From a virus (lineage: Duplodnaviria; Heunggongvirae; Uroviricota; Caudoviricetes): a stretch of 12,347 bases of DNA. Numbering within the stretch: position 1 is the first letter of the stretch; each line of letters starts with the position of its first letter. The DNA is taken from the IMG/VR virus record IMGVR_UViG_2541047882_000003, positions 1 to 12,347 of that record. One strand, given 5' to 3'. Under the pieces are notes generated by a model. That model had not been told where the DNA came from, made no database searches, and saw only the letters and a program-made list of their open reading frames with translations. Shown here piece by piece: positions 1 to 12,347 of this stretch. The position numbers and the translations under genes were made by a program.

Positions 1-372
1 TTACTTCCTGCGTTTATCCTGCTTTGTATGCCCGTGCTGAATGCCCCGCAGTGGATCTTCTTTTTTCAGGTCGATCCCCATGTCCGTTAGTGTTTTTGTG
101 GCGGCGGTTCTTATGGCACAAATCAGGTCTCTTTCCGGTTCCCGGGTTATGGTTGCCTTCCGGATGCATGCCGTTCGTCGTTCCGTTACATACTGACGCG
201 CTTCATCACTTGCCGCCTGTTTCAGTAACTCACCCCAGCGATTAGCCGCCCGTCGCCATAAACCTTTCGCTTCCAGTTCTTCCGCTTTGTCATCATGCAC
301 CATAAGCATAATCCCATTGATACCTGTTAAATCTGAATGGTTGGTTTCTGTTCTTTTGATAATTTTCCGCAT
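1..372 (-). CDS. PerC-family-like small transcriptional regulator (paralog 1)
   Basis: Complete ORF of 123 aa (ATG as reverse complement of 370-372, TAA as reverse complement of 1-3). Motif DDKAEELEAKGLWRRAANRW matches the conserved core I associate with PerC/Pch activators and is shared with the 95-aa paralog at 4277..4564 (DSKAEELEAKGLYRRAAARW...CIR.A). No good SD at 372; alignment with the paralog suggests the real start may be the internal ATG at 303. Confidence 0.6.
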   Translation of the reverse strand: MRKIIKRTETNHSDLTGINGIMLMVHDDKAEELEAKGLWRRAANRWGELLKQAASDEARQYVTERRTACIRKATITREPERDLICAIRTAATKTLTDMGIDLKKEDPLRGIQHGHTKQDKRRK

Positions 373-387
373 AGCTTATTGTATGAC

Positions 388-399
388 AGTACTGTCCCA
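388..399. promoter_or_regulatory. 12-bp perfect palindrome GACAGTACTGTC in the 45-bp divergent intergenic region (candidate operator)
   Basis: Read directly: GACAGTACTGTC equals its own reverse complement, flanked by ATTGT...ACAAT. It lies between the divergent starts at 372 (-) and 418 (+). Confidence 0.35.
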
Positions 400-417
400 C
401 AATAAGGAGTTGCACGC

Positions 418-708
418 ATGAGAATGACCAGGCACAAAAAACAGATCCTTGAACTCTACAAACCTGAGTATCGCGATTGGGTGCGGGTGGAGGCTGGAGA
501 TCCACCTTTTGATGTTCGTGGTGTTACAGTGCTGCTCTATGGTTCCGAATATCAGCGATATCACATAGAGGCAACACGAAGGACGCTAAACGCTATGGTT
601 CGTGATAAGTTGCTGGAGCGTGTGAAAGTCCGTGAGCCACGTTTTGATGTGCGTATTGGTGGCGATGGTGCGCATTGCACGGTAATCCGCTATGGCCTGG
701 TAAGGTAA
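418..708 (+). CDS. hypothetical protein (96 aa)
   Basis: ATG at 418 preceded by a strong SD, AAGGAG at 405-410 (7-nt spacer). The ORF ends about 70 nt before a stem-loop plus T-run. No family recognised. Confidence 0.6.
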   Translation: MRMTRHKKQILELYKPEYRDWVRVEAGDPPFDVRGVTVLLYGSEYQRYHIEATRRTLNAMVRDKLLERVKVREPRFDVRIGGDGAHCTVIRYGLVR

Positions 709-738
709 GCCATCGGGTAAATCAGATGATTAAATCAC

Positions 739-760
739 CAGAATGTAAATTTACATTCTG
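739..760. repeat. 22-bp perfect palindrome CAGAATGTAAATTTACATTCTG between convergent genes
   Basis: Read directly; it is self-complementary over 22 bp. Could be a hairpin contributing to bidirectional termination or a protein-binding site. Confidence 0.5.
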
Positions 761-776
761 CCAGCCACCAGCTACC

Positions 777-803
777 CTCCTCAAAATTGAGGAGCCTTTT
801 TAT
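777..803 (+). terminator. candidate rho-independent terminator for the 418..708 gene
   Basis: 7-bp stem CTCCTCA/TGAGGAG (777-783 pairs with 788-794), 4-nt loop AAAT, then CC followed by TTTTT. Confidence 0.45.
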
Positions 804-810
804 CAACTGG

Positions 811-1101
811 TTACCGCCGTAACCGCTCCGGCTTCTTCCACTGGTAAGTCTTTTTCTCGCTCTCCCGGTACATCTGCACGCGGCGACGGTAGGCCAATAA
901 CTCGAGTACCCTGGTGCGTATGTCGCGCATATCCACTCCGTTAAGCTCAATACCGTCACGGCGCATCACCTCAGCCACCACACGCGCATAGTTCTCAGCG
1001 ATAACGCTGTCCGGCTGCGTGGCCTCCTGTTTGCCTGCTGGTGGTCTGATCCCGGCAATCTGGCGAATCATTTTGAGCATTTCGGCTTCGGTCATTGTCA
1101 T
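811..1101 (-). CDS. hypothetical protein (about 96 aa; alternative starts at 1095 or 1125)
   Basis: Long ORF 811..1125. GGAGG lies immediately upstream of the tandem ATGs at 1101 and 1095 (minus-strand sequence GGAGGCCATGACAATGACC), so I favour one of these over 1125. No family recognised. Confidence 0.5.
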   Translation of the reverse strand: MTMTEAEMLKMIRQIAGIRPPAGKQEATQPDSVIAENYARVVAEVMRRDGIELNGVDMRDIRTRVLELLAYRRRVQMYRESEKKTYQWKKPERLRR

Positions 1102-1390
1102 GGCCTCCAGAGGATGGGGAAACAATGCCGTAATTGTGGCGACTGATAACGGGAAGGTGAAGCGCGTTTAAGCTGGTGGATGTGGTGCCATGTTTCCCAC
1201 CAATGGTGGAAAAGCCCACCAGCGCAACGCAGGACGCATAAAACCATTGCGATGACTCATGACAGGGGGATAACCACAAAAACAACGTCAGCGGCGCGAT
1301 TCTGGCTGTTCCTGTCCGGGATGTGCATACGTATTACGTACGCAGTTAATCCGGCATAACGCATGACGTTGATGAAACGCCCCGATCATC

Positions 1391-1465
1391 GCGGGTCCTC
1401 CTGGATGGGTACCCTTACCGCGGGGCGACGGACGCGCGGAAAAAGGCTGGTTTTTGCATTTTCAT
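1391..1465 (+). other. cos-like site A (cosQ-like CGGGTCCTCCTGG, cosN-like dyad CCGCG-N10-CGCGG at 1418-1439); orphan, no terS downstream
   Basis: Alignable to the phage lambda cosQ-cosN junction as I remember it (lambda ACGGGTCCTTTCCGG...GTTACGGGGCGGCGACCTCGCGGG). The 36-bp core CCTTACCGCGGGGCGACGGACGCGCGGAAAAAGGCT is identical to inverted copy C at 4085..4170. Confidence 0.5.
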
Positions 1466-1865
1466 GGCGGCGGCAGCATGTGTGGTAATATATTGATAAT
1501 TAAAAGTTATTTCTGTTTTCACCTGTACAATCTTTTTTCTCCCCTGTCATTAGACCAGTTCGCAATCAATTGAAATATATAAATAAATCTGATTTTCACC
1601 TGCCAGATGGAGTTGCCAGTGTCAAATGTGAGCGGAAGCGGTGATGCTTATCACTGAATCATGCCGCATCACGATACCAGACTCCCGGTACCGCTGCGTG
1701 ATAACCCACAAGGCTGGTGGCGATGCGTTATGGTCCGTGCATTGCCATTCTCCTGGCCTGGTGGCATTATCCGGCATGAACGAGCGGTTATTCTCCGTAC
1801 TCTTAATCGTTGTTCATGGTTATTTTCTTTGTGGTAGCTGACTTCTTGATGTCCTTATCCTCCTG

Positions 1866-1890
1866 CCCCGTAATCACGGGGTATTTTTTT
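1866..1890 (+). terminator. rho-independent terminator (plus strand)
   Basis: CCCCG (1866-1870) / CGGGG (1877-1881) stem, 6-nt loop, followed by TATTTTTTT. The T-run is on the plus strand only. Confidence 0.5.
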
Positions 1891-2424
1891 ATCTGTGATT
1901 TGCTGTTCTTCGCTGTGTTGGTATGGGGAGTTCTGGCAATGGTTCAGGCCGTCGCTTTCCTGGTACGTGATTTTTTACGTTCATTATTGTGCTGGTGGCA
2001 GCGTCACGGTGTGTCACGACATGTCACCATCACGTCACGCTGATTGCGAAAGCCAGGATTAACCAGTACCGGAACGGGTAGCCCGGTGTATTGTTACCGT
2101 CCTGCCTGCTGGTGGAGTAATTGATAACGGTTATCATCAACGGGAGGGGCGGATCAAATCCCTGCAGTCCTGGCTGTCCGGGACCGCCCGCCTACCCTTG
2201 TTCACATCGCCGCAGGTTCGAAAACTTTTTTTTGGGAAGGTGTGCACAGACTTGATAGGTAAAACCTATCAGGTAAAGCCACGTCAAACCCGCGCCATTG
2301 CTGGCATCGTTAAAAAAACTCACTCCACCAGCAGGCTAAAAAACTGTGATTTTTCCAGCTTTTGGGGCTCAAAAAGGGCTCCCTAAAAAAACTCTCACAC
2401 TGTCGGAGGGGGCGGGAAATTTTC

Positions 2425-2640
2425 ACGGGTCCTTTCCGGGATCTGAAACACCGCGGGGCGGTAGACGCGCAGGATTTCACTATTTATGAAAATTTTTCAG
2501 GGGAAAAGCGTGTCGGTACTTCTCGCGCATAACTGTTTGTTTTTATTAAAATCAACCACCAGAAACATACGACATCATAAAGCCAAAAAATCCTGTTTTT
2601 TTGGCGTTTCATGTCGGAGGTGGTTTTTGATAATAAATTG
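2425..2640 (+). other. lambda-like cos site B (cosQ, cosN-like, cosB R3/I1-like elements); orphan, no terS downstream
   Basis: ACGGGTCCTTTCCGG at 2425-2439 is identical to the lambda cosQ 15-mer. After a 16-nt spacer comes CCGCGGGGCGGTAGACGCGC (lambda has GGGCGGCGACCT here). CTATTTATGAAAATTTT at 2480-2496 is identical to lambda positions just right of cosN. Further lambda-cosB-like text follows (CATAACT..GTTTTTATTAAAAT, then a dyad). The ORF at the Nu1-equivalent position is only 25 codons and unrelated to Nu1. Confidence 0.65.
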
Positions 2641-2756
2641 GTGGATTAATGTTAATAAAAATGTTTTTACTACCTGATGGAAACAACCGGAAACGTGCCG
2701 GAGAAATTACGGCAACAGAAAGGTGAGTGACAGCCGCGCAATTATTGAACAAAACT

Positions 2757-2953
2757 GAGAAAGGATCTGATAACGTCATTTTTGGCCCAAAATGCCTACT
2801 GTCAGATCCTTTCTTTTTTTGATGATTTTACGATTAAACAATGAGTTACAGAGAAGAAGAACGGATCTGACTTTTCCCGAAAAATTTTCATAAACAGTTA
2901 AGAATTGCGCGTACCCGTACCCCCGGCGCTTAAGGTTCCGGGAAGGACCCGCC
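2757..2953 (-). other. lambda-like cos site D, inverted relative to B (cosQ-like, cosN-like, R3-like, distal 13-bp inverted repeat)
   Basis: On the minus strand: GCGGGTCCTTCCCGG (reverse complement of 2938-2953), a GC dyad GCGCC..GCGC (reverse complement of 2905-2933), CTGTTTATGAAAATTTTTCG (reverse complement of 2878-2897, against lambda CTATTTATGAAAATTTTCCG), TCCGTTCTTCTTC..TAACT (against lambda TCCGTTCTTCTTCGTCATAACT), then a 13-bp perfect inverted repeat AGAAAGGATCTGA (2758-2770) / TCAGATCCTTTCT (2802-2814) resembling the lambda GAAAGGAAACGACAG...CTGTCGTTTCCTTTC dyad. Confidence 0.55.
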
Positions 2954-3067
2954 GGAGATAGCTACCATAAGGCGTAATTAAATATCCGTGGATGTGCCAC
3001 GGAACAACCAGCTGAATACAGGTCAGCGTGATGACGGGAAATAAAGAGAATGGTTGCGAATCCTCCA

Positions 3068-3092
3068 CCTGGTGAATCTCCTGCACTACCTG
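3068..3092. repeat. 25-bp direct repeat copy 1 (CCTGGTGAATCTCCTGCACTACCTG); duplicate of the terS 3-prime end
   Basis: Exact 25-bp match to 3444..3468, which encodes the last 8 codons of the terS-like gene. Copy 1 is not in an intact gene. Confidence 0.85.
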
Positions 3093-3364
3093 TCATTTTT
3101 GCGCAAATACCCCTGGCATTTCTAAGCATGATCAACCTGATCATTGTTCGCGGTTTTTACGTGGCAAGGCCAGTAATTACGGGGCTTACATCAATGTTTA
3201 TTCCGCCCATCTCTGCGCAAAACAACTTAACAAACCTTAACATCACAGGCGGAACCATTGCGCAAATCTGGAGGCTTACCGCACGCACCAGCCTGATACA
3301 TTGCCAGAATGAACGAGGTGCGACACAATGTGTGTGCATGTCTTACTCATTGAACCTCAATCAA

Positions 3365-3397
3365 GGCGCATCCTTAGCGGTGCGCTTTTATTTTTTT
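3365..3397 (+). terminator. candidate rho-independent terminator (plus strand)
   Basis: GCGCA (3365-3369) pairs with TGCGC (3380-3384), with possible extra CC/GG pairs, followed by TTTTATTTTTTTG. Confidence 0.4.
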
Positions 3398-3435
3398 GTC
3401 GTTCCCTGCTGGTGGATGTTTTCCGGTACCGCGAA

Positions 3436-3945
3436 TTATTCCCCCTGGTGAATCTCCTGCACTACCTGCGGCGTGCTGTCGTGCCAGTCGTTAGCCTGTA
3501 TCACTCTGGTAGTAATTTGCCTGCACAGGTCATCAATAATCTGCCTGACGCGGTTTACTGCGTTCTGATTGATGCCTGCATCGTGCGCCAGAATGTCGGG
3601 GAGTTTTGCCAGTTCCTCGCTTAAGATTTTCCCAAAAATAACCAACTCCCTGCGCACATCCACGGCGGGGATAAGTTCAGCCGTTTCCTGCTCGAACTTA
3701 AGGCGCTCACGCTCAGACTGGTACCAGGCTTTACGGCTTTGTGGATCCATGTCTTCGAGTGATGCGGGGGCGGGTATATTCATGAATGCGCTGATTATAT
3801 CCGTCAGTCGGTACAGCTTTAATTTTTCATGCCCTCCGGCTGGCTGAATGTCCTTTAGCCTTTTCGCTACTGTCTGGCGGCAAACTCCCGCCAGTTCTGC
3901 GAGTTGATTGATATTAAGTTTCAGGTTTTTAAGCTCCCGATCCAT
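3436..3945 (-). CDS. phage small terminase subunit, lambda Nu1 family (TerS-like); longest ORF extends to 3984
   Basis: N-terminal LNINQLAELAGVCRQTVAKRLKD...EKLKLYRLTDIISAF aligns with the lambda Nu1 winged-HTH region (VNKKQLADIFGASIRTIQNWQEQ...NEVLYDSAAVIKWY), and the length is similar (169-182 aa against 181). GGAGG lies 4 nt upstream of the ATG at 3945, so I favour that start. No large terminase ORF follows. Confidence 0.7.
   Translation of the reverse strand: MDRELKNLKLNINQLAELAGVCRQTVAKRLKDIQPAGGHEKLKLYRLTDIISAFMNIPAPASLEDMDPQSRKAWYQSERERLKFEQETAELIPAVDVRRELVIFGKILSEELAKLPDILAHDAGINQNAVNRVRQIIDDLCRQITTRVIQANDWHDSTPQVVQEIHQGE
3444..3468. repeat. 25-bp direct repeat copy 2 (within the terS 3-prime end)
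   Basis: Exact match to 3068..3092. Confidence 0.85.
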
Positions 3946-4084
3946 TCGTCCTCCGGTAGTTTTAAATGCGTATCGTGCGCTCATCTTTCAGTGGGTTAAA
4001 AGTGTTCTGTATGTTGAACAAAAAACACCCCAAATTAACATAGTAAAAATATATTTCATTTTAATTCAACATGTTGGAAAGATG

Positions 4085-4170
4085 ATGATGACGGATGAAA
4101 ATGTAAAAATTAGCCTTTTTCCGCGCGTCCGTCGCCCCGCGGTAAGGCCACCCCTCCGGAAGGACCCGTA
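4085..4170 (-). other. cos-like site C (inverted copy of A) about 140 bp upstream of the terS-like gene
   Basis: On the minus strand: ACGGGTCCTTCCGG (reverse complement of 4155-4168), then CCGCGGGGCGACGGACGCGCGG (reverse complement of 4120-4141), then AAAAAGGCT..ATTTTTACATTTTCAT. This is the lambda arrangement cosQ-cosN-cosB followed by Nu1, with similar spacing to the terS start. Confidence 0.55.
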
Positions 4171-4191
4171 AAAAAAGCCGGAGTGTTCCGG
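4169..4191 (-). terminator. rho-independent terminator after the PerC-like/FinO-like operon
   Basis: On the minus strand GCCGGAACACTCCGGC (6-bp stem, 4-nt loop) is followed by TTTTTTT, about 85 nt after the stop of 4277..4564. Confidence 0.6.
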
Positions 4192-4276
4192 CTTCGTCTG
4201 TGTATGTGCGCATATGCAGGATTTTATGTTATCCGCCCACGGGAGTGATGGTCATTTTTCAGGATAATATCCGGCA

Positions 4277-4564
4277 TCACTGGTTACCGCCAGGCTGCTT
4301 CGGGTAGTTCCGCCAGACGGATTTACCCGCGTCTTCCATCCCCATCACCGCATGAGTGCGGTTTACAGCCTCTTTCAGTGCCCCGAAGTTATCCGCCATA
4401 ACGGGTGGGCGTGCTGCCCTGCGGATGCATTCCGCGCGACGCTTTGCCACCTGTTCGCGCTCCTTATCGGTGTTCACCAGCTGCATGACCTCAGCCCACC
4501 GCGCCGCCGCTCTCCGGTACAGGCCTTTAGCCTCCAGTTCTTCCGCTTTGCTGTCACGAATCAT
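4277..4564 (-). CDS. PerC-family-like small transcriptional regulator (paralog 2)
   Basis: 95 aa with DSKAEELEAKGLYRRAAARWAEV, matching the paralog at 1..372. Its start overlaps the stop of the upstream gene (ATGA at 4561-4564), indicating translational coupling. Confidence 0.6.
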   Translation of the reverse strand: MIRDSKAEELEAKGLYRRAAARWAEVMQLVNTDKEREQVAKRRAECIRRAARPPVMADNFGALKEAVNRTHAVMGMEDAGKSVWRNYPKQPGGNQ

Positions 4565-5097
4565 GCGCCTGTCTTCTCCTTTGTCGCCTGACGTTTGCGC
4601 TTTTCATTCAGTGCTGCCAGCCGCGTTTCTGCCTCCTGCTGTTCCTGTGGTGTCACTTCCCCACATGGCTGGCCTTTCAGGTCGTAACGTGTGCCACCAG
4701 CCATTAAGGCGCGGTAATAGCGCGGAGACTGCGCATAAGATGCCAGCGTCGCACGTAATGCCCCCGGCCCGAATGTCAGCCCCCTGGCGGCGATATCCTG
4801 TATCAGGTCGTCGAATATCCCCACCTTAAGCGGCTTCGGTGCTTTATGGCTGAATAAGTCAGGCCACATCTCAGTGAGGCGGTTAACGCGTCGGCGGTTT
4901 TTGCGCTGCCTTTTGGTCATATGCTGCCACGGTGTCGCCCCTGCGGTCTTCTGTTTGCGGCTCTGCTGTGCGTTCTGATTATCGGGTATCACTTTATGCG
5001 CCGATGTGGTTTTATCCTGCTCTTGTGCCGCCTGCGTCGTTTTCTGCGGCGTGCCGTAAATGCCTTTCGGTTTTCGGTTAATGGTCAGCTTTGTCAT
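4561..5097 (-). CDS. ProQ/FinO-domain RNA-binding protein
   Basis: 178 aa. PLKVGIFDDLI and LRATLASYAQSPRYYRALMAGGTRYDLKGQPCGEVTPQEQQEAE align closely with the E. coli ProQ N-terminal FinO-like domain (PLKIGIFQDLV...LRSALRLYTSSWRYL..GATRVDLDGNPCGEL) as I remember it. It is preceded by a basic, Q/K-rich N-terminus. Confidence 0.8.
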   Translation of the reverse strand: MTKLTINRKPKGIYGTPQKTTQAAQEQDKTTSAHKVIPDNQNAQQSRKQKTAGATPWQHMTKRQRKNRRRVNRLTEMWPDLFSHKAPKPLKVGIFDDLIQDIAARGLTFGPGALRATLASYAQSPRYYRALMAGGTRYDLKGQPCGEVTPQEQQEAETRLAALNEKRKRQATKEKTGA

Positions 5098-5211
5098 GCC
5101 TTCCCCTGTAATTACGCTGTTCGCTGTTGTGAATTAAAACGGTATGTTATCCCCGTACGGGTCATCGTGCTGGCTTGTCTGTTGTTTTGCCCTGTTCAGT
5201 GCGTCAGTGGC

Positions 5212-5559
5212 CTAGCCCTGTTGACCTTTTTTGCCGCCCGGTCGCGCCGTTCGCGCACTGATTACGCTGTCTGCAATAACCTGCCAGCCCTGCCGCGTTT
5301 CCCCGTTCTGGCCTGTCCACTGGCTTACCTGCATGTTACCCGCCACGCTCACAAGTTCGCCTTTCTGGTGCTTTGCCAGTGCATCGGCCTGTCTGCCAAA
5401 TGCCAGGACGGATAACCACATCGTCGCCGTTCCGTCATCTGCCTGGCTGCACGGCAGGGGAACCGCCATACTCGCCATCGCCATTTGTGTCCCTTTGCTG
5501 GTGGTCTTTAACTGCGGGTCAGCCACCAGCCGCCCGTAAGCCGCTATCTGTGCTGTCAT
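5212..5559 (-). CDS. single-stranded DNA-binding protein-like (OB fold, no acidic C-terminal tail)
   Basis: 115 aa. IAAYGRLVADPQLK and TMWLSVLAFGRQADALAKHQKGELVSVAGNMQVSQWTGQNGETRQGWQVIADSV align with the E. coli SSB core (ILVGNLGQDPEV...[52 protein letters not shown]). GGAGAG lies 9 nt upstream; the start overlaps the upstream stop (ATGA). Confidence 0.7.
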   Translation of the reverse strand: MTAQIAAYGRLVADPQLKTTSKGTQMAMASMAVPLPCSQADDGTATMWLSVLAFGRQADALAKHQKGELVSVAGNMQVSQWTGQNGETRQGWQVIADSVISARTARPGGKKGQQG

Positions 5560-5906
5560 GCTGTATGCTCTCCGTTTTTAACGTTGATGGTTGTCACCTG
5601 TTCCGCTGTGCTGTTAGCCGGATACCATGCAAGCGTTCCCGGTTCATCTGAAAGAATGAATTTTGTGTCAGGCAAATACAGGCATTCGCAATATCCCTCT
5701 GCGCTGTGATGTGGTGTCATTCCCATATCACCAGTGAGTACCGGTAATATTTCAGAGTAAACCTCAGAATCACCGGAATAAAACACATCGCAAATCGCCC
5801 ATGCAGCAACCGGACTCCACCACTCGCCGCAATCGTCATTCCGGAATCTTGCCCACCAGCCAGGAACAGCCGGAGAAATGCTTTTTGGTATGGCTTCAAG
5901 AAACAT
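5556..5906 (-). CDS. hypothetical protein (116 aa, Trp-rich), translationally coupled to the SSB-like gene
   Basis: ORF with GAGGTG 7 nt upstream of the ATG at 5906. Its stop overlaps the SSB-like start. No family recognised. Confidence 0.55.
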   Translation of the reverse strand: MFLEAIPKSISPAVPGWWARFRNDDCGEWWSPVAAWAICDVFYSGDSEVYSEILPVLTGDMGMTPHHSAEGYCECLYLPDTKFILSDEPGTLAWYPANSTAEQVTTINVKNGEHTA

Positions 5907-5982
5907 AAAAACACCTCAATTTTTGTATATCTACAGAACCGTGTGGGTTACACCCGGCCTTTTTTCATCCATTACAGTGATA

Positions 5983-6133
5983 TTTTGCGGGTTATAATCG
6001 CGCTTTTGCGGGTTATTTAGGCCCATTTGCGGGTTATTTGGGGTATTTTGCGGGTTACGATTTTTCTGTCATTTCTTTAATAATCATATGGATACTGACT
6101 TATCCACAGAAATAACCCGCATAACCCGCAAAA
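5983..6133. repeat. iteron array (TTTGCGGGTTA x4 direct at 21-22 bp spacing, plus 2 inverted copies) with an AT-rich spacer; candidate replication origin
   Basis: Direct copies of TTTTGCGGGTTAT at 5983-5995, 6004-6016, 6025-6037 and 6047-6058. AT-rich stretch 6061-6100. Inverted copies ATAACCCGC (6112-6120) and ATAACCCGCAAAA (6121-6133). Located immediately downstream of the replication-protein stop at 6159. Confidence 0.6.
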
Positions 6134-6158
6134 TTTTCACCCTACACGCGAGAAAAAA

Positions 6159-8282
6159 TTAATCTTCTTCGCTTTCTGGCTGGAACATCAGCACGTAAAA
6201 AACATGCTGCTTCCCCCCAATCCTGCCGAGCGCCTTTTTCTTGTAACGGCGGTCGTTACCCTTTTCCAGCATCCCCGCCGCATCAAGCGCCCTTGCAAAA
6301 TGCGACGGATTAAATCCCTGTGCTATCTCACCCTCAAATACATGCGGGAACGTGTAAAAACGGAACTCGTCATCTTCGTTTCTGATACTCCCCTTTCTGT
6401 ATCCGGCAAGCTCTTTAATCGGTAAATCACGCTCGTCGGTGTTGGGCCACGGAAGGTATCTGCTGAATCCGAACGACGCTAAAAAAGCCTCTGCCTGTTC
6501 AACCATCTGTTTAAACTCCCTGTTACCCGTGCCGAATTCCTTCACCCAGGCATTAAAATTATGCTGAATGGCATCGCGGCATTCCTGCTCATCCCAGCCA
6601 GTAACATGACCGGAAAGCACAAGCGCGGCCTCCAGTATGGCGAAACGCTCACCCACACGGTGTACCTGCTCGCCGTAGCTCTCCGGTATCAGGTTGCGCC
6701 ACCGTTCTCGGCATGACCTTACCGTGTCCTTTGCCTCCTGCTGGTGGTCTGCCAGCCATTTAACCCATTCACGACCCGCCGCCCCGTGATTTTCTGTCCA
6801 GGCATCTTTTAACGCGTCTGCGTGCGCCTTTCCGGTGCTGTATTCGTGAAATTGTGTGGCTTTTTCCATCGGCACGTTAAGCAGGCGGACAAGCTGCCCC
6901 GCCTTGACTTTTATCCCCTCCGTTTTGAGGAATGTTTCAACGTCCATTTCTCCGGTACTGATTGCCACCGTTCTCCAGTGTTTTATCTCCCTGTTGCCGC
7001 CGTCCTTCGCCCCCTGTAATTTCCCGGAACCGTTAAACAGCGTATAAGCAGACGTTGACACCTCCCGCGCGTTTCCGGCCTGGCCTATTTCATCCAGGGG
7101 TAACAGCCCGTCGTTGTGTGCCTCTGCCTCGTTGGCGATACCTAACGCTGTACCGTACCAGGTCAGCCGTTGTGCGTCCGGCTCTCCCCATAAACTTGAT
7201 GCGATGTTCTGTGTGGTGGTTTTCCCTGCCGATGACTGTTCGAAAAGATGTACCCCGAAGCCGTCAGCACCCACCAGCCCGATTAATGGTGCAGATAACG
7301 ATACCGCCACACCCAGCATCATGGACGGATTACCACCAGCCAGCCGCGCAACGGTATCGCGCCAGCCTTCCGCCGTTCCTGCCACGGAATAGCCATTAAC
7401 AGCGGCAGTTTTTCCGGTAAACAGAATCGGTTTTTCAGACTCACCAATGACCGAACCGTCCGGCATGATGTACGCGCCAAAATGCCAGCCCGTTGTTGTG
7501 CTTAACTGCCATTCCTCATGGTTTCCGCTTAACTGCATCCAGTCAGCCAGGATAGCCCTGTATTTGCCGTTGGTTGTCACGTTCAGGCCGTGGTCTTTCA
7601 GCAACCGCCAGCCGTCACGGTCGCCAATGCCACCGCACGGAATCGCCATTGTGATGACTTCATGATTTGCTGGCTTTTTCCAGCGCATCACGCGGTAATG
7701 CTCTTTACCGATTGTCCCCGTTCCCAGTAGTTCAAGCGGGGAACATAACCACGTCTCAGGCCGGATAATTTCGCCTGACTGCTTGTCAACTTTTGGCGTT
7801 ACCCAGAAAACACCATCGGCGCGGCTTTCAACGCGGGGCTTTAATTCATCATCGCTATAGCTTCCTGTGGCTTTTTTCTTTAAGGGCAACACCAGACTTT
7901 CCCCGCGCTCGTATTCGTCTTTCAGCCGGGCAAGCTGTGGTGTCCAGTCCTCCAGTAAATCGCCGTTCTCGTCACAAAAACAGGCTTCCTTAACACCAGC
8001 CACTGCCAGCAGGGTTTCAATCTGTAGCGCCAGTTTGTCATCCAGTTTTCCGGCACGTCTGACGATGGCGCGTGACCGACCCTCATCCACAATACGCAGG
8101 TTTTCCAGATTACCCAGGTCACGCCGTCCGAGATAAACAGGTGGTATTTTGTCGCCGCGCTTTCTGGCTTCTCCGCCCTGCATGTAATGCTCTGCGTGGC
8201 TGTATGCGTCATCCCCCGCAAAAATCACTGCATCCTCGCCTTTATCTTTCGGTAACAGTTTTACGTTCGGTGCCAGTTTCAT
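6159..8282 (-). CDS. replication protein with P-loop NTPase domain (putative primase/helicase-type initiator of the element)
   Basis: 707-aa ORF. Walker A-like SSAGKTT and Walker B-like LLPLDE are visible. Its start overlaps the upstream stop (ATGA at 8279-8282) and an iteron array follows its stop. Assignment to a specific primase/helicase family is not verified. Confidence 0.75.
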   Translation of the reverse strand: MKLAPNVKLLPKDKGEDAVIFAGDDAYSHAEHYMQGGEARKRGDKIPPVYLGRRDLGNLENLRIVDEGRSRAIVRRAGKLDDKLALQIETLLAVAGVKEACFCDENGDLLEDWTPQLARLKDEYERGESLVLPLKKKATGSYSDDELKPRVESRADGVFWVTPKVDKQSGEIIRPETWLCSPLELLGTGTIGKEHYRVMRWKKPANHEVITMAIPCGGIGDRDGWRLLKDHGLNVTTNGKYRAILADWMQLSGNHEEWQLSTTTGWHFGAYIMPDGSVIGESEKPILFTGKTAAVNGYSVAGTAEGWRDTVARLAGGNPSMMLGVAVSLSAPLIGLVGADGFGVHLFEQSSAGKTTTQNIASSLWGEPDAQRLTWYGTALGIANEAEAHNDGLLPLDEIGQAGNAREVSTSAYTLFNGSGKLQGAKDGGNREIKHWRTVAISTGEMDVETFLKTEGIKVKAGQLVRLLNVPMEKATQFHEYSTGKAHADALKDAWTENHGAAGREWVKWLADHQQEAKDTVRSCRERWRNLIPESYGEQVHRVGERFAILEAALVLSGHVTGWDEQECRDAIQHNFNAWVKEFGTGNREFKQMVEQAEAFLASFGFSRYLPWPNTDERDLPIKELAGYRKGSIRNEDDEFRFYTFPHVFEGEIAQGFNPSHFARALDAAGMLEKGNDRRYKKKALGRIGGKQHVFYVLMFQPESEED

Positions 8283-8593
8283 TTTGCTTTTCCCCGTTCA
8301 CGAATAATTTCACGTACTGCCTTAATGCGTTCCATACCTGTAACGCGCATGATTCTGTCGATGTCGCTTAAGTTCGCTGGTGGTGCTTTGCTTACCAGGG
8401 TGAATTCACTCTCAAAACGCATATGTGACGACACGCAGGGATGCGCATAACCTTCGCGAATATAAGTCACGCGAAAATCGTCAACGGTTTTTATCGTTAT
8501 TCGTCCACCATATTTATCTTTGAAAATATCGCCGGGGCGGATTTCAGGCCGAGCGGGGCCGCTGGCAGTAAAGCCAGAAATTTTCTGTTTCAT
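8279..8593 (-). CDS. hypothetical protein (104 aa), coupled to the replication protein
   Basis: ORF with ATG at 8593; 4-nt overlap with the downstream rep start. No family recognised with confidence. Confidence 0.6.
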   Translation of the reverse strand: MKQKISGFTASGPARPEIRPGDIFKDKYGGRITIKTVDDFRVTYIREGYAHPCVSSHMRFESEFTLVSKAPPANLSDIDRIMRVTGMERIKAVREIIRERGKAK

Positions 8594-8598
8594 GGTTT

Positions 8599-8832
8599 TT
8601 ATTTCCCGGTGTGTTGTTCTTTATATCTGTCGTGCAAAAGATCTATTTCTTGTAGTTCCATTATTACCGGCTCAAGAAGCGTTATTAACGCCGTCGCAAT
8701 ATTGCTGTTGCGTTTATCTCTTTCATTATCGCCAAGCGTTCCAAGCCATAAGCGCAATATTTCAAGCATGTTTTCACTGTAAGCAAGAGCACGGTATGCA
8801 CGGTCTACTGTGTCATTGTAAATATCACACAT
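8599..8832 (-). CDS. hypothetical protein (77 aa)
   Basis: ATG at 8832 with GGAGG 9 nt upstream; overlaps the upstream stop by 8 nt (ATGTGTGA). Confidence 0.55.
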   Translation of the reverse strand: MCDIYNDTVDRAYRALAYSENMLEILRLWLGTLGDNERDKRNSNIATALITLLEPVIMELQEIDLLHDRYKEQHTGK

Positions 8833-9070
8833 GGCTTACATCCTCCGGGAATTTTCTTCTGTAACGCGCCTCTGCCACATATTCCGCATAGTCCGACGCA
8901 ATATTGAGAATCTCCGCACCCTCTGACCTGTAGCCACTGGTATTGATAAGAAAAAATGCGGCTTTTATCATGTCAGCAACGCCCAACAATGCGTCTGCTT
9001 CGTGTTCCGGTGCGCCATCAAATTCCTGTTTCAGGGCATTAAAACGATCATCACGCATAACCCCCCCCAT
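8825..9070 (-). CDS. hypothetical protein (about 82 aa from the ATG at 9070; track shows an alternative TTG start at 9085)
   Basis: The first in-frame ATG is immediately followed by the G8 tract (ATGGGGGGGG on the coding strand). Overlaps the end of the upstream ORF in another frame. Confidence 0.5.
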   Translation of the reverse strand: MGGVMRDDRFNALKQEFDGAPEHEADALLGVADMIKAAFFLINTSGYRSEGAEILNIASDYAEYVAEARYRRKFPEDVSHV

Positions 9071-9290
9071 TTTCACAATCAGCAATCAGGATAGCCCTGG
9101 CCTCATTCAGTGCCATATCAGCACTAAATTGCATAACAGCCAGTGAGTGAGGAACGAAAGCCCCGGCATATTCTGTTTCGCTGGTGGCGTACTTATGCGC
9201 CTTGTCTGCGATAACAGAAATATCAATCAGCGCATCAATCAGTGTTTTTATAGCTTCGGCGGCTGCGTCCGGACGGGTGTTATTGCACAT
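9051..9290 (-). CDS. hypothetical protein (79 aa)
   Basis: ATG at 9290 with AGGAGG upstream; the start overlaps the stop of the 68-aa ORF (ATGTGCAATAA). Its C-terminus is encoded across the G8 tract. Confidence 0.55.
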   Translation of the reverse strand: MCNNTRPDAAAEAIKTLIDALIDISVIADKAHKYATSETEYAGAFVPHSLAVMQFSADMALNEARAILIADCENGGGYA

Positions 9291-9486
9291 GGCGTACCTC
9301 CTGACGAATACGGGCGGCGAATACCATCACGCAACCAGCCGGGGATTGCTGGCGTGCTTCCTGTTCGCTGGTGGCCTCGATGGTAATCACGCGCGGTTGT
9401 GCCGTGCTCAGGGCGATAAAACGCCAGATGTATTTATTCAGGTTGTGCGAGTCCCGCCCTTGCTGGTGTGTGGTATAATTTCTCAT
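9280..9486 (-). CDS. hypothetical protein (68 aa), first gene of the leftward replication operon
   Basis: ATG at 9486 with GAGGT 6 nt upstream. It is the in-frame C-terminal part of the spurious 371-aa track ORF. Its stop overlaps the next start. Confidence 0.5.
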   Translation of the reverse strand: MRNYTTHQQGRDSHNLNKYIWRFIALSTAQPRVITIEATSEQEARQQSPAGCVMVFAARIRQEVRHVQ

Positions 9487-9581
9487 AGCTACCTCGATAC
9501 TCTCGTTATCGTTGGTGGTTAGAGGCTGCGAAAGGACGGCAATCCTTTCCAGCCTCGTTTGCATTGAGTGATAGTTACTCA

Positions 9582-9664
9582 ACTGGATTCCAGTATAATC
9601 ACTAAGTGGAATCCACTTCAAGCATTTTGTTTTGGTCTTTTTCGTGTATACTGGATTCCAGTAA
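9582..9664. promoter_or_regulatory. divergent control region with three odd-length palindromes (candidate operators) overlapping -10-like hexamers
   Basis: ACTGGATTCCAGT at 9582-9594 and again at 9651-9663 (CTGGA-T-TCCAG), and GTGGAATCCAC at 9607-9617. TATAAT at 9593-9598 and TATACT at 9647-9652 on the plus strand. Lies between the minus-strand operon start (9486) and the plus-strand small gene (9683). Confidence 0.45.
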
Positions 9665-9682
9665 TCACAAAGGAAACCAGAA

Positions 9683-9862
9683 ATGGAAAGAGACCATATC
9701 AATAACAAATCACAGAAATTACAGGCTCGCGCCCCGCATGAAGTTGTTGAGGCAATGGAGCAAGTCAAAGAAACGGGCGAGAGTACTGCGCAGTTTATCG
9801 TTACAGCCATGCGTGGCGAGATCAAACGCCGCCAGCGCCGCAAGGCCAAAGAGCAGGAGTAA
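9683..9862 (+). CDS. small ribbon-helix-helix-like DNA-binding protein (59 aa); candidate repressor
   Basis: Not in the supplied track (below its length cutoff). ATG at 9683 with AGGAA 7-8 nt upstream; TAA at 9860-9862. The translation MERDHINNKSQKLQARAPHEVVEAMEQVKETGESTAQFIVTAMRGEIKRRQRRKAKEQE has a strand-helix-helix pattern typical of Arc/CopG-type proteins. Confidence 0.5.
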   Translation: MERDHINNKSQKLQARAPHEVVEAMEQVKETGESTAQFIVTAMRGEIKRRQRRKAKEQE

Positions 9863-9919
9863 CCATCACCAGCGCCGTGGTGCGGTGAACTGTGGCGCAC
9901 AGGGTTATAGGTATCTACG

Positions 9920-10117
9920 ATGACTGACAAATCATTAAAGAAATTATCCTCATCCAGGAAAAAACAACGCAAAAACGCGGTAAGAGAACATGAACAGGAA
10001 AGATTCGCGCCATGTGCGTTTGTCCTTGAAAAGTTCCTTAAAGAGTACAGGCGCACAAAAATGGGATCGCATGCCTGGAAAACATCGCAGCATGGCGATA
10101 CTAAAGAGCAGGAATAG
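9920..10117 (+). CDS. hypothetical small basic protein (65 aa)
   Basis: ATG at 9920 with AGG 8 nt upstream; Lys/Arg-rich. Followed about 100 nt later by a plus-strand terminator. Confidence 0.4.
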   Translation: MTDKSLKKLSSSRKKQRKNAVREHEQERFAPCAFVLEKFLKEYRRTKMGSHAWKTSQHGDTKEQE

Positions 10118-10220
10118 CCCACCAGCAAGCCAGCACACTGATCACATTGCCCACCAGCCGCAAATGTGGCATTGTTGATTATGCTCATGCGTTGGCGATA
10201 ACGTGTAGCTTGTGTCGAAG

Positions 10221-10248
10221 GGCCACCGTAGCGGGTGGCCTTTGTTTT
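10221..10248 (+). terminator. rho-independent terminator for the plus-strand small genes
   Basis: GGCCACC (10221-10227) / GGTGGCC (10234-10240) stem followed by TTTGTTTT. Confidence 0.5.
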
Positions 10249-10399
10249 GCCTGTTATCCGGCAATTGTGGCGCTTCGCCACACGGTTGATATAATTCTCC
10301 TGCACTGATCCATTTTTTTCGCAGCAGGTTAATTGTTCGCAAGGGCGCTCCGGCAACGGGGCGCTTTTTGTTATGTTCATCGCGTTACGCCTCACACCA

Positions 10400-10606
10400 T
10401 TACGCAGCCGTTCCGCGCGCTTCTTCCTCGCGCTCTTTCAGCCAGGCCAGCACTTCATCTTCATACCAGCCAACACGACGCAGACCGATTTTGAAGCCTT
10501 TCGGGAATTTTCCGGCGTTGATCATGTCCTGTAGCGAACTGTCTGCCTTGATGCGCAGAATATTTTTTACTTCCTGACGGGTAAGTATTTTTCTGATTGT
10601 TTCCAC
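10400..10606 (-). CDS. alpA: AlpA-family phage transcriptional regulator
   Basis: 68 aa. ILTRQEV..IL........DMINAGKFPK...GLRRVGWYEDEVLAWL matches the AlpA pattern (LRL..V......A..T.Y.W......P...........VGW.E.E...WL). GAGGT about 8 nt upstream of the ATG. Position relative to a P4-type int is typical. Confidence 0.75.
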   Translation of the reverse strand: METIRKILTRQEVKNILRIKADSSLQDMINAGKFPKGFKIGLRRVGWYEDEVLAWLKEREEEARGTAA

Positions 10607-10677
10607 TATGTTTTACCTCGTTAATCCGGCGTATTCCGGTGATAAATACGGTAAAACAGGGCAGGGCGGGAAAAACA

Positions 10678-10714
10678 GTACCCACCGTTTTAAAACGGTA
10701 CCCACTGTTTTTTA
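10678..10714. promoter_or_regulatory. repeats upstream of alpA: 16-bp perfect palindrome ACCGTTTTAAAACGGT and direct repeats GTACCCAC(C/T)GTTTT
   Basis: Read directly in the alpA 5-prime region. Candidate operator/promoter elements. Confidence 0.35.
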
Positions 10715-10740
10715 TCTCATTGATTACGCTTTTCTTTCTG

Positions 10741-10771
10741 CAAAAAAATAGCGACCGCAAGGGGCCGCTAT
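10741..10771 (-). terminator. rho-independent terminator after the int/76-aa ORF transcript
   Basis: On the minus strand ATAGCGGCCCCTTGCGGTCGCTAT forms a hairpin followed by TTTTTTT, 6 nt downstream of the stop at 10777. Confidence 0.5.
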
Positions 10772-10776
10772 TGTGA

Positions 10777-11007
10777 TTACCGTTTCCACTTCTTAGGTCG
10801 CCCACCGCATTTAAGGCTGGTGGGCCTCAGCACCTTGTCGATGCTTTCAGCCAGATTTTTCGATGCGCCACGCGAGCGTAAAAAACTGACTACCTCGTGT
10901 TTTGTGGGGGCTGTTGATTTGTCTTCCGGATCGTATGTTGACCAGAATTCACGATTTGCCATTAACGCCAGTTGCAGCCCTTCGCCGTAGGCGGTGGTAT
11001 TTTGCAT
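10777..11007 (-). CDS. hypothetical small protein (76 aa) between int and alpA
   Basis: ORF with a basic C-terminus (GGRPKKWKR). Weak, AT-rich region upstream of the start. No family recognised. Confidence 0.45.
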   Translation of the reverse strand: MQNTTAYGEGLQLALMANREFWSTYDPEDKSTAPTKHEVVSFLRSRGASKNLAESIDKVLRPTSLKCGGRPKKWKR

Positions 11008-11105
11008 AATAGAATTTTCATATACTCCGGCCTTGTCGTTAAATTTGTGGCAATTATACGATGGTTTGGCATGGTTTGCATCGCTTTTACTGGCTTTTTA
11101 TACAG

Positions 11106-12347
11106 TTACACGGCACGGATACCCCTTTTACCACTGGCTATGGTCACTCCGGTAGCTGCGGCCTCTACAAATTCCCCCCACCAGCGCATAAGCACCACGC
11201 GCTTTTCCAGGTAGTTACTTCGGTTATATGCTCGCCTTACCTCGTTTGTGTCCACGTGTGCGAGTGCGGCCTCGATTACGTCCGGCTCGAATCCTTCCTC
11301 GTTCGCTGCTGTACTGAATATGGCGCGTAATCCGTGAGACACCAGCACACCAGCGTAACCCATCCGGCGCAATGCGGCGTTAGCTGTCTGGCTGCTCATT
11401 GGCAGCATTGGATTTTTAAGGCTGGGAAAAACGTGTTCCCTGTGTGCGCTGATTGGCTTCATGGTTTCCAGTACAGCCATAGCCTGACCGCAAAGGGGGA
11501 TCACGTGGTCACGGCGCATCTTCATGCGTCCGGCTGGAATCGTCCAGGTTTCGGCATCGAGATCTATTTCTTCCCAGCGTGCGGCGGCTGCTTCGGCTGG
11601 GCGTGCTACGGTCAGCAGTTGCCACTCAATCAGCAATCTGGTTTGCCGTTCTATGCTGGCGACCGATAAATCGTGCATTAGCTGCGGTAGCTGTTCCGGT
11701 CGGATGGTTGGCATGTGCTTTTTGGTGGGTGAGGGGAATGCCTTGCGGACGTTCGCGGCGGTGTTGATGTCAATCAGCCCACTGTTGGCAGCAAAATCCA
11801 TCACTTCATTGATGCGTTGTAAAACGCGTTTCAGAGTTTCCAGGTTGCCGCGTGCTTTAATGGGTGTGAGTATCTCAACAAAGCGGCGAGCTGTGAGGGT
11901 ATCTATTGGCGTGTTTCCGATGTACGGGAATACGTATTTTTCCAGGGATCGCCAGATATCCTTAATCGTGTTGTAAGCCAGATTCTGGCCTTTTTTCATC
12001 TCGTACCAGTCCGAGGCAACTTTTTCGAACGTGTTGCCCTTTTTCCGACTCTCTGCTTCACGTTTCCGGCGTTCGTGGTCCTGTGGGTCAACTCCCTTCG
12101 CTATGAGTGACCTGTATTCATTCCGTCGTTCTCTGGCATCGGACAGGGAAACATCATTCAGCGATCCGAGGCTGATGATAGTCCGTTTTTTATCTGCCGG
12201 GCGGTAGTACGTAAAACGCCAGATTTTTGATCCGGAGGGTTTCACCAGAAGAAATAATCCTCCACCATCCTGCAGGGTGTATTCCTTTTCCCCTGGTCGT
12301 GCGTTTTTGATCTCCGTGATGGTTAGTGGAGTGGTTTTTCGTGCCAT
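11106..12347 (-). CDS. int: tyrosine-type site-specific integrase, P4-like
   Basis: 413 aa. N-terminal DGGGLFLLVKPSGSKIWRFTYY arm-binding-like region and C-terminal HGLRAIFST ... AALAHVDTNEVRRAYNRSNY catalytic region (H-x-x-R and the terminal Tyr) are typical of P4-family integrases. The ATG is the last three bases of the window, so the upstream region and att site are not visible. Confidence 0.9.
   Translation of the reverse strand: MARKTTPLTITEIKNARPGEKEYTLQDGGGLFLLVKPSGSKIWRFTYYRPADKKRTIISLGSLNDVSLSDARERRNEYRSLIAKGVDPQDHERRKREAESRKKGNTFEKVASDWYEMKKGQNLAYNTIKDIWRSLEKYVFPYIGNTPIDTLTARRFVEILTPIKARGNLETLKRVLQRINEVMDFAANSGLIDINTAANVRKAFPSPTKKHMPTIRPEQLPQLMHDLSVASIERQTRLLIEWQLLTVARPAEAAAARWEEIDLDAETWTIPAGRMKMRRDHVIPLCGQAMAVLETMKPISAHREHVFPSLKNPMLPMSSQTANAALRRMGYAGVLVSHGLRAIFSTAANEEGFEPDVIEAALAHVDTNEVRRAYNRSNYLEKRVVLMRWWGEFVEAAATGVTIASGKRGIRAV

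Follow-up and report, generated by a model that had tools for sequence, protein, structure and literature searches.

Why should a phage satellite carry two lambda-like packaging sites that face each other? The question is raised by a stretch of 12,347 nucleotides, positions 1 to 12,347 of the IMG/VR record IMGVR_UViG_2541047882_000003 (the whole stretch is referred to below as the window), in which a cos site on the plus strand (B) and a second on the minus strand (D) point towards one another. The window is a phage-inducible chromosomal island (PICI) of Escherichia coli belonging to the EcCICFT073 family: an integrase and a primase/replication module are present without a full set of virion genes, and the gene order is that of EcCICFT073. 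A first-pass annotation of the window had recognised the two sites and suggested that they met where an inversion or insertion had joined two packaging regions. Comparison with phages and related islands shows that the B/D pair is the small terminase (terS)-type counterpart of the cos1 and cos2 sites published for PICIs, that the intervening gene has been deleted, and that the pair lies within an array of five cos sites. Coordinates of all features are collected in Table 1.

Two complete cos sites in convergent orientation

When the region was compared with itself by repeat scan and self-BLAST, an inverted repeat of 76 nt was obtained (2426-2501 / 2876-2951) with 74% complementarity. Matches to lambda were found on both strands, lambda 13-95 aligning with window 2468-2551 on the plus strand (76%) and lambda 124-25, on the opposite strand, with window 2799-2897 on the minus strand (71%). 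Four copies of the cosQ core CGGGTCCT were counted in the window (1392+, 2426+, 2951- and 4168-), where 0.29 were expected. A composite cosQ-cosN pattern, GGGTCCT-N18-30-GGGG-N6-8-ACGCGC, also matched four times, in each case at one of these positions; the corresponding count in 200 shuffles was 0.00. With cosQ/R4 taken as a GGGTCCT core approximately 20-30 bp upstream of cosN, the element is present in both B and D, as is a cosB composed of R3, an inverted R2 and R1 around a site for integration host factor. The position of cosN and its flanks (GGG...ACG|CGC) align with those of lambda, 21, Gifsy-1 and cdtI; the central bases are unlike those of every phage compared.

By their sequence elements, B and D are complete lambda-type cos sites (cosQ, a putative cosN, I2 and R3/R2/R1) that converge. 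The existence of two facing lambda-like sites, as first annotated, is upheld by these element-by-element alignments and by counts far above chance, and the region is clearly cos-derived rather than a single unit unrelated to phage cos. Neither cosB is followed directly by an intact small terminase gene, there being a deletion remnant after B and no such gene after D. A cos without terS directly downstream is typical of satellite cos sites and not of phage cos sites.

B keeps the order and spacing of all elements annotated, on experimental grounds, in the cos of phage 21 (M81255; R4, cosN, I2, R3, I1, R2, R1 and I0). Matches to phage 21 comprise 12/12 positions in R4/cosQ, 15/15 in I2, 15/16 in R3, 17 of 19 aligned columns in I1, 11/16 in R2 and 12/16 in R1. 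The differences lie in 6 of the 12 cohesive-end bases, in R2 and R1, which have diverged, in the ribosome-binding site (1/4 conserved) and in the terminase gene, which is destroyed in the window. Island copies of B were 90% (L012) and 88% (L002) identical. Some phage records begin at the cohesive end; judged by these, the left end falls at window position 2456, which gives GGGCGGTAGACG as the putative cohesive end.

The whole of D could be aligned to the cos regions of SerU-LTIIb, Gifsy-1 and lambda. Its cosQ, I2, R3, R2 and R1 are invariant among island copies and phages whose remaining sequence diverges by 20-30%; the cosN core varies. In common with the cos sites of Gifsy-1, SerU-LTIIb and an E. 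coli lambdoid prophage (L019), D has cosQ and I2, and its three R boxes match theirs exactly in sequence and spacing; in contrast to them it has no terS or terL downstream, is inverted against the end of another terS within a satellite, and has a different cosN core. No terS was found after D in the window by tblastn with Nu1-type TerS proteins, nor in any relative examined.

A 13-bp perfect inverted repeat (2758-2770 / 2802-2814) had been likened to the lambda dyad upstream of Nu1 and taken as the point at which the ends of B and D meet. The repeat is present and is homologous to the R2/R1 dyad of lambda. It consists of the R2 and R1 boxes of D itself, a third copy being R3 (2857-2872), which was picked up as the repeat AGAACGGATCTGA; the dyad therefore lies wholly within D, and its role as a meeting point is contradicted. 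As plus-strand RNA it folds at -27.7 kcal/mol (z = -6.2; 0/200 shuffles as stable) and is followed by TTTCTTTTTTT. Given this strong plus-strand hairpin with a T run, the dyad could double as a terminator of the upstream terS. It was not listed by a simple promoter and terminator scan, because the hairpin loop is too long for the scan; the R2/R1 boxes account for the same sequence.

Deletion of the small terminase gene after B

Both sites had been described as orphans, neither having a terS. The description is accurate for D. For B it holds only in that no intact terS remains in the window, since the gene has been deleted there and is intact in approximately 20 other genomes. In island L002, approximately 507 extra bp lie between window positions 2661 and 2669 and complete a small terminase of 200 amino acids of the Phage_Nu1 family, of which residues 176-200 are encoded at window 2671-2745 with 92% identity (tblastn). 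The 25-codon open reading frame at 2650-2727 runs over the deletion out of frame, and is a frameshifted remnant rather than a native short reading frame.

Among 5,426 complete E. coli genomes, the deleted form was found in 10 and the intact form in approximately 20. Around the deletion junction (2540-2800), the 10 genomes with the deleted form, which come from varied hosts and countries, show at least 98.9% identity. B lost its terS by a recent internal deletion of approximately 507 bp, shared by the window and 10 other genomes, and is not a natural orphan. The deletion itself is directly observed, as are the homology and the conservation of elements described above.

The convergent cassette in related islands

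Comparison with related elements revealed a continuous, conserved cassette. Convergent sites enclosing an intact gene were found in L002, L012, L011, E. coli O157:H7 EC4115 (L018, terS at 3726-4268) and EcCICFT073 itself. In the island of strain Nissle 1917 (L020), for which the scan covered the downstream side only, cos-down faces the end of terS. The gene of 144 amino acids in EcCICFT073 is rppA, its product matching RppC (PDB 6HLK) with E = 5e-31; a plus-strand cosQ-cosN unit stands directly upstream of it and a minus-strand unit directly downstream. The same two sequences are printed as cos1 and cos2 in Fig. S1A of Fillol-Salom et al. 2019 (PMC6739421), cos1 lying upstream and running into the RppA start MIDKACF, and cos2 inverted downstream. 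Both sites are experimentally functional, cos1 being Rpp-dependent and recognised by RppA-TerS (PMC6092414, PMC6739421), and cloned cos2 supports transduction (Fillol-Salom et al. 2018, PMC6092414). The reason for two cos sites in some PICIs was left open by the authors (PMC6092414, PMC6739421), and literature searches on multiple cos sites in PICIs returned nothing specific.

As a prophage control, 24 loci encoding a Nu1-type TerS were taken from many enterobacterial species by a TerS-alignment scan of genome contigs; the scan gave almost exclusively prophage loci because the collection holds one genome per species. A single cosQ was located approximately 218 bp upstream of terS in 22 of the 24, and an inverted cosQ within 700 bp downstream of terS in none (0/24). 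Since the cassette recurs on other backbones and at other insertion sites and is absent from these prophages, the convergent partner is a feature of satellites, not an accident or an inversion junction. The succession of cos, terS or rpp, and inverted cos is the standard packaging cassette of E. coli PICIs. This architecture is seen directly in the relatives, and it does not bear out the junction first proposed; the sole rearrangement that could be detected is the internal deletion of terS.

The window and EcCICFT073 belong to the same element family, and in both two convergent lambda-type cosQ-cosN units, each with a cosB of its own, flank a specificity gene. They differ in several respects. 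The gene between the sites of the window is a deleted Nu1-family terS and not rppA, and no rpp homologue was found in the window by tblastn with RppA. The R boxes of B are of the phage 21 type, unlike the Rpp-specific cosB of cos1, and those of D are of the Gifsy-1/L019 type, whereas the boxes of cos2 are of the ATGTCCGG type. The two cosN of EcCICFT073 are identical and lambda-type, whereas the cosN cores of B and D differ from lambda and from each other. The window island additionally possesses an outer pair of cos sites (A and A') with a DUF1441 gene, and a phiP27-type cos. Staphylococcus aureus pathogenicity islands either encode their own small terminase, by which the large terminase of the helper is redirected (pac islands), or carry a copy of the helper cos (SaPIbov5; PMC6092414). 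In the window cassette both strategies stand side by side, and the types are lambda/Nu1 and DUF1441 rather than staphylococcal pac or HNH-cos.

Specificity classes and mosaic small terminases

The core of the D-type R3/R2/R1 boxes, CAGATCC[G/T]TTCT, is identical in all island copies, Gifsy-1, SerU-LTIIb and L019. In L019 these boxes directly precede terS and terL, and the TerS proteins of L019 and Gifsy-1 have the recognition helix DVRT(I/V)TAWQ in common. The core of the B boxes, [C/G]ATGTCGG, is that of phage 21, and the corresponding 21-type helix, DPRTIERWQ, is found in the island TerS of L002 and L012. Over its whole length, the TerS of L002 is 63% identical to a 21-type TerS. A 21-type prophage at icd of CFT073 was used as a reference for the 21-type cos and TerS.

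The island small terminases are mosaic. A C-terminal half is common to those of L002, L012, L011 and L018, and is 52-55% identical to the TerS of L019 and 27-38% identical to those of 21-type phages, lambda and Gifsy-1. The N-terminal DNA-binding domains are of two unrelated types with 29-33% identity between them. The N-terminal type co-varies with the upstream cos, and the downstream cos stays D-type.

In lambda, Nu1 recognises cosB through its N-terminus and binds the large terminase subunit through its C-terminus. Given this established biology, the simplest reading is that the island factor would couple a private DNA specificity, that of cos-up, to the large terminase of the helper, and that cos-down would be a copy of the site of the helper. 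Such a pairing of private and public sites would, by analogy, parallel cos1 and Rpp of EcCICFT073. Which proteins bind which site, and which phages act as helpers, we infer from these patterns of similarity.

Cos copies that are nearly identical in other respects differ widely in the cohesive-end core (B and D of the window, L012 and L002). The upstream site of L012 has a D-like core, GGGTACGTGTAC, unlike that of B in the window. This variability suggests either exchange between the arms or free drift of the central bases.

An outer convergent pair and a phiP27-type site

Along the island the order is A (+), the phiP27-type site (+), B (+), the terS remnant, D (-), the DUF1441 gene (-) and A' (-). 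A and A' form a second convergent pair that encloses B and D. The start of the cdtI and Tritos records corresponds to window position 1423. The cosB segment of A is 92% identical to cdtI, and the site ends in a stub, 16 codons in length, of a cdtI-type (DUF1441) terS, identified by tblastn. Self-BLAST showed that 4095-4168, in A', is an inverted copy of 1392-1465, in A (89% over 74 nt). The cosB segment of A' shares only 57% identity with either cdtI or A.

The protein encoded next to A' is 35% identical to cdtI gp01, a DUF1441-family protein encoded directly before the cdtI terL. It is a homologue of the cdtI-type small terminase and a candidate specificity factor for A'; the module looks intact. 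An identity as Rpp was considered for this protein and rejected, as there was no RppC match in PDB up to an E value of 10 and no similarity to RppA, the 35% identity to the cdtI small terminase being found instead. A direct repeat of 29 nt (3064-3092 / 3440-3468, 97%) was also observed. The copy at 3440-3468 forms the 3' end of the DUF1441 gene; the other, in non-coding DNA just beyond D, contains 10 C-terminal DUF1441 codons by tblastn. A second DUF1441 gene, or else a junction between modules, probably left this remnant.

The site between A and B matches the HNH-terS intergenic regions of phi467 (79%), of mEp235, where it stands at the right genome end, and of phiP27, the last at 94% over 51 nt and reaching into the annotated phiP27 cos-site. 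A perfect inverted repeat of 15 nt, GCCTGCTGGTGGAGT, which contains Chi, brackets this module exactly (2104-2118 / 2322-2336). A 12-mer of the repeat recurs at 3405-3416. In L012 the module has another position with respect to B and D, and for this reason the Chi-containing repeats may mark the boundary of a mobile cassette.

Proposed packaging strategy and alternatives

We consider it probable that B and D act as paired packaging-initiation sites equivalent to cos1 and cos2, forming the private and public arms of a PICI cassette. The ancestral cassette would have consisted of cos-up, a specificity gene (a Nu1-type terS here, rppA in EcCICFT073) and an inverted cos-down. The cosB of cos-up (B) would be read by the 21-type DNA-binding domain of the island factor, fused to a TerS C-terminal half like that of the presumed helper, and cos-down (D) would carry the helper's own cosB, with R boxes of the Gifsy-1/L019 type. 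After induction the island would replicate, and the helper terminase would then start packaging at a cos readable either by the small subunit of the helper or by the island factor; with one private and one public site, initiation could therefore proceed via the island factor or directly. In lambda, cosQ-dependent termination is directional. If the same holds for the island, opposed sites should not terminate packaging begun at each other, and we infer the benefit of the orientation from this property. Following the loss of terS, B would be usable only by a helper with a 21-type TerS and D only by one with a Gifsy/L019-type TerS. The same private and public convergent design may serve cdtI-type helpers through A' and the DUF1441 protein facing A, and the phiP27/HK97-type cos would add a fourth terminase class.

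Several points weigh against this proposal. The deletion of terS may mean that the cassette is decaying in the lineage of the window. B and D have dissimilar cosN cores (GGGCGGTAGACG and GGGTACGGGTAC, respectively), and neither core was seen in any of the phage copies examined, so that cutting by a given helper TerL is an assumption. Deletion of cos2 in EcCICFT073 raised lambda-mediated transfer (PMC6092414), and a second cos can therefore be disadvantageous with certain helpers. A and B have the same orientation and are only approximately 1 kb apart, as is also the case for D and A'; avoidance of cross-termination therefore cannot be the whole story. Finally, the assignment of the helper depends on the 52-55% identity of one protein half.

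It could be argued that B, D, A, A' and the phiP27-type site are nothing other than independent landing pads that extend the range of unrelated helpers, their orientation being incidental. The sites do span four terminase classes, each with close phage counterparts, and with terS deleted this is effectively how the island in the window would have to work. Expansion of helper range as the only explanation is nevertheless unlikely, given the strict pairing and orientation around terS or rpp in every island examined and in 0/24 prophages, and the way in which cos-up changes together with the DNA-binding domain of the island TerS, against a constant cos-down and a constant C-terminal half. It is very improbable that D is a decoy, that is, a helper-type cos-down that sequesters the TerS or terminase of the helper and thereby hampers helper packaging rather than serving transfer of the island. 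The complete cosQ-cosN-I2 kept at D would be needless for a pure TerS sink and cloned cos2 of EcCICFT073 is active in transduction, although PICI interference with helper packaging is known (PMC6739421) and the helper-type R boxes of D are perfect.

Decay would account for the gene stubs beside the sites (the 16-codon stub after A and the deleted terS after B) and for cosN cores unlike those of the phages compared, if the sites were fragments of helper phages acquired by recombination during co-replication and now without function. Relics of this kind would not be expected to retain a cosQ, an I2 and three R boxes that are invariant at D amid 20-30% divergence elsewhere, the homologous cos1 and cos2 function in EcCICFT073, and the deleted variant has kept at least 98.9% identity over 2540-2800 in 10 genomes of varied hosts and countries; we regard this explanation as improbable. 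The junction proposed at first, with two once-separate packaging regions joined tail to tail by inversion or insertion, is scarcely credible. In the related islands, the prototype included, the cassette is continuous and its gene intact whatever the backbone or locus, and no rearrangement other than the internal terS deletion was detectable; what speaks for it is that the 76-nt inverted repeat is imperfect with an unrelated interior and that both sites lack a gene in the window. The pairing of a private with a public packaging site remains the reading that we favour for B and D.

Island context, Chi sites and other observations

The window is 98% identical to chromosomal islands of several E. 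coli genomes, in which the insertion site lies between yejO and tRNA-Pro/yejM. Public records have no annotation at approximately 1290-3436, the stretch that holds B and D, and the cos sites of the island were unannotated in all public genome records examined. An Rfam scan of the whole window gave no known structured RNA at the gathering score. The two PerC-family genes have a stretch of 27 nt in common (93% identity); EcCICFT073 has one PerC gene. A segment of 73 nt just 3' of the primase gene (6002-6074) matches, inverted and at 77%, L001 2256-2329, which lies approximately 700 bp to the left of the window start in related islands.

Chi (GCTGGTGG) occurs 23 times in the window (12 on the plus strand and 11 on the minus) against 0.41 expected from shuffles. 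Its density is 1.5-1.9 per kb in the window island and L002, 0.9 in EcCICFT073 and 0.17-0.33 in the chromosomal flanks; a 42-kb lambdoid prophage encoding Gam has zero copies, and the CFT073 prophage at icd served as a Chi-free control. The density suggests that Chi protects the linear or rolling-circle DNA of the satellite from RecBCD. Literature searches on Chi in PICIs or satellites gave nothing specific. Because the corresponding left flank in the related islands is also Chi-dense, the island probably extends past the left edge of the window.

Nu1-type TerS was also encountered on short contigs of unrelated taxa, including Kitasatospora, Paenibacillus, Oceanobacillus, Bradyrhizobium and Limosilactobacillus among others (L027-L034, L044, L051-L055, L057, L058, L060, L063, L064, L067 and L078), at 53% identity to the query, as in the lambda-like loci. 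From their sequences, these contigs look like lambda DNA contamination of the assemblies.

Table 1. Features of the window and of the convergent cassettes in related islands; positions refer to the record named in the first column.
Record	Feature	Position	Strand	Remarks
Window	PerC-family regulator genes (two)	1-372 and 4277-4564	-	
Window	Chi, examples	1037, 1172, 1713, 1991, 2108; 2325; 3408	+; -; +	
Window	cos A	1392-1654	+	phage-cdtI-type with helper-type cosB; 88-92% identity to phages cdtI, Tritos and HannyBb
Window	Elements of A	cosQ 1392-1399; cohesive end 1423-1434; cosB to ~1606; terS stub 1607-1654	+	cohesive end GGGCGACGGACG
Window	phiP27/HK97-type cos	2119-2297	+	type of phages with HNH endonuclease and Terminase_4 TerS; between A and B
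Window	10-nt cos equivalent of phiP27-type site	~2185-2194	+	CGCCCGCCTA
Window	cos B (cos1 position)	2426-2649	+	phage-21-type lambda-like cos; 74% identity to annotated phage 21 cos over 236 nt
Window	Elements of B	cosQ/R4 2426-2437; I2 2485-2499; R3 2506-2521; I1 2528-2542	+	
Window	Distal elements of B	R2 2564-2579; R1 2607-2622; I0 2629-2642	+	
Window	Putative 12-nt cohesive end of B	2456-2467	+	GGGCGGTAGACG; from phage records starting at cos
Window	Nu1-family terS remnant	2650-2748	+	start and first codons 2650-2662, short filler, last 25 codons and stop in original frame 2671-2748
Window	Dyad of R1 and R2 of D, then T run	2750-2822	+	RNA hairpin
Window	cos D (cos2 position)	2951-2755	-	lambda-like with Gifsy-1/SerU-LTIIb-type cosB; aligned with SerU-LTIIb, Gifsy-1, lambda and four PICI copies
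Window	Elements of D	cosQ 2944-2951; I2-like 2878-2892; R3 2857-2872; R2 2800-2815; R1 2757-2772	-	
Window	Putative cohesive end of D	~2911-2922	-	GGGTACGGGTAC
Window	DUF1441 protein	3436-3945	-	Pfam DUF1441, E = 5e-35
Window	cos A'	3946-4168	-	cosQ 4161-4168; cosN identical to that of A; divergent cosB running into DUF1441 gene
Window	DUF927 primase	6159-8282	-	
Window	Integrase	11106-12347	-	
Window	Helix-turn-helix regulator, Icd-like protein, single-stranded DNA-binding protein, ProQ/FinO protein		-	
L002 (backbone of the window)	cos-up; terS; cos-down	5251; 5469-6071; 6273	cos-up +; cos-down -	
L012 (capsid-gene island at yejO)	cos-up; terS; cos-down	4010; 4227-4811; 5031	cos-up +; cos-down -	
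L011 (island at phoQ)	cos-up; terS; cos-down	2343; 2518-3060; 3281	cos-up +; cos-down -	
EcCICFT073 (L017, next to phoQ)	cos; 144-aa gene; cos	15529; 15660-16094; 16339	first cos +; second cos -	prototype island

Significance

A wider and more tentative possibility, to which we give less than even weight, is that a private cos with an inverted public cos is a general two-site design of E. coli PICIs that can be stacked or nested. The island would then be a packaging hub whose five cos sites serve four terminase classes (21-type Nu1, Gifsy/L019-type Nu1, cdtI-type DUF1441 and phiP27/HK97-type HNH), with an exceptional density of Chi keeping its DNA intact during rolling-circle replication and after cos cutting. 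If true, the two-site design would answer a question raised in the published work, namely why a second cos site is found in some PICIs. The island and its relatives make that question concretely testable, with the R boxes of presumed helper prophages downstream and, upstream, a cos-up that co-varies with the DNA-binding domain of the island TerS or Rpp. Four terminase families are represented among the cos sites of this one 12-kb satellite, which bears on the spread of such islands among strains with different prophages; islands of the PICI kind often carry virulence or defence genes.

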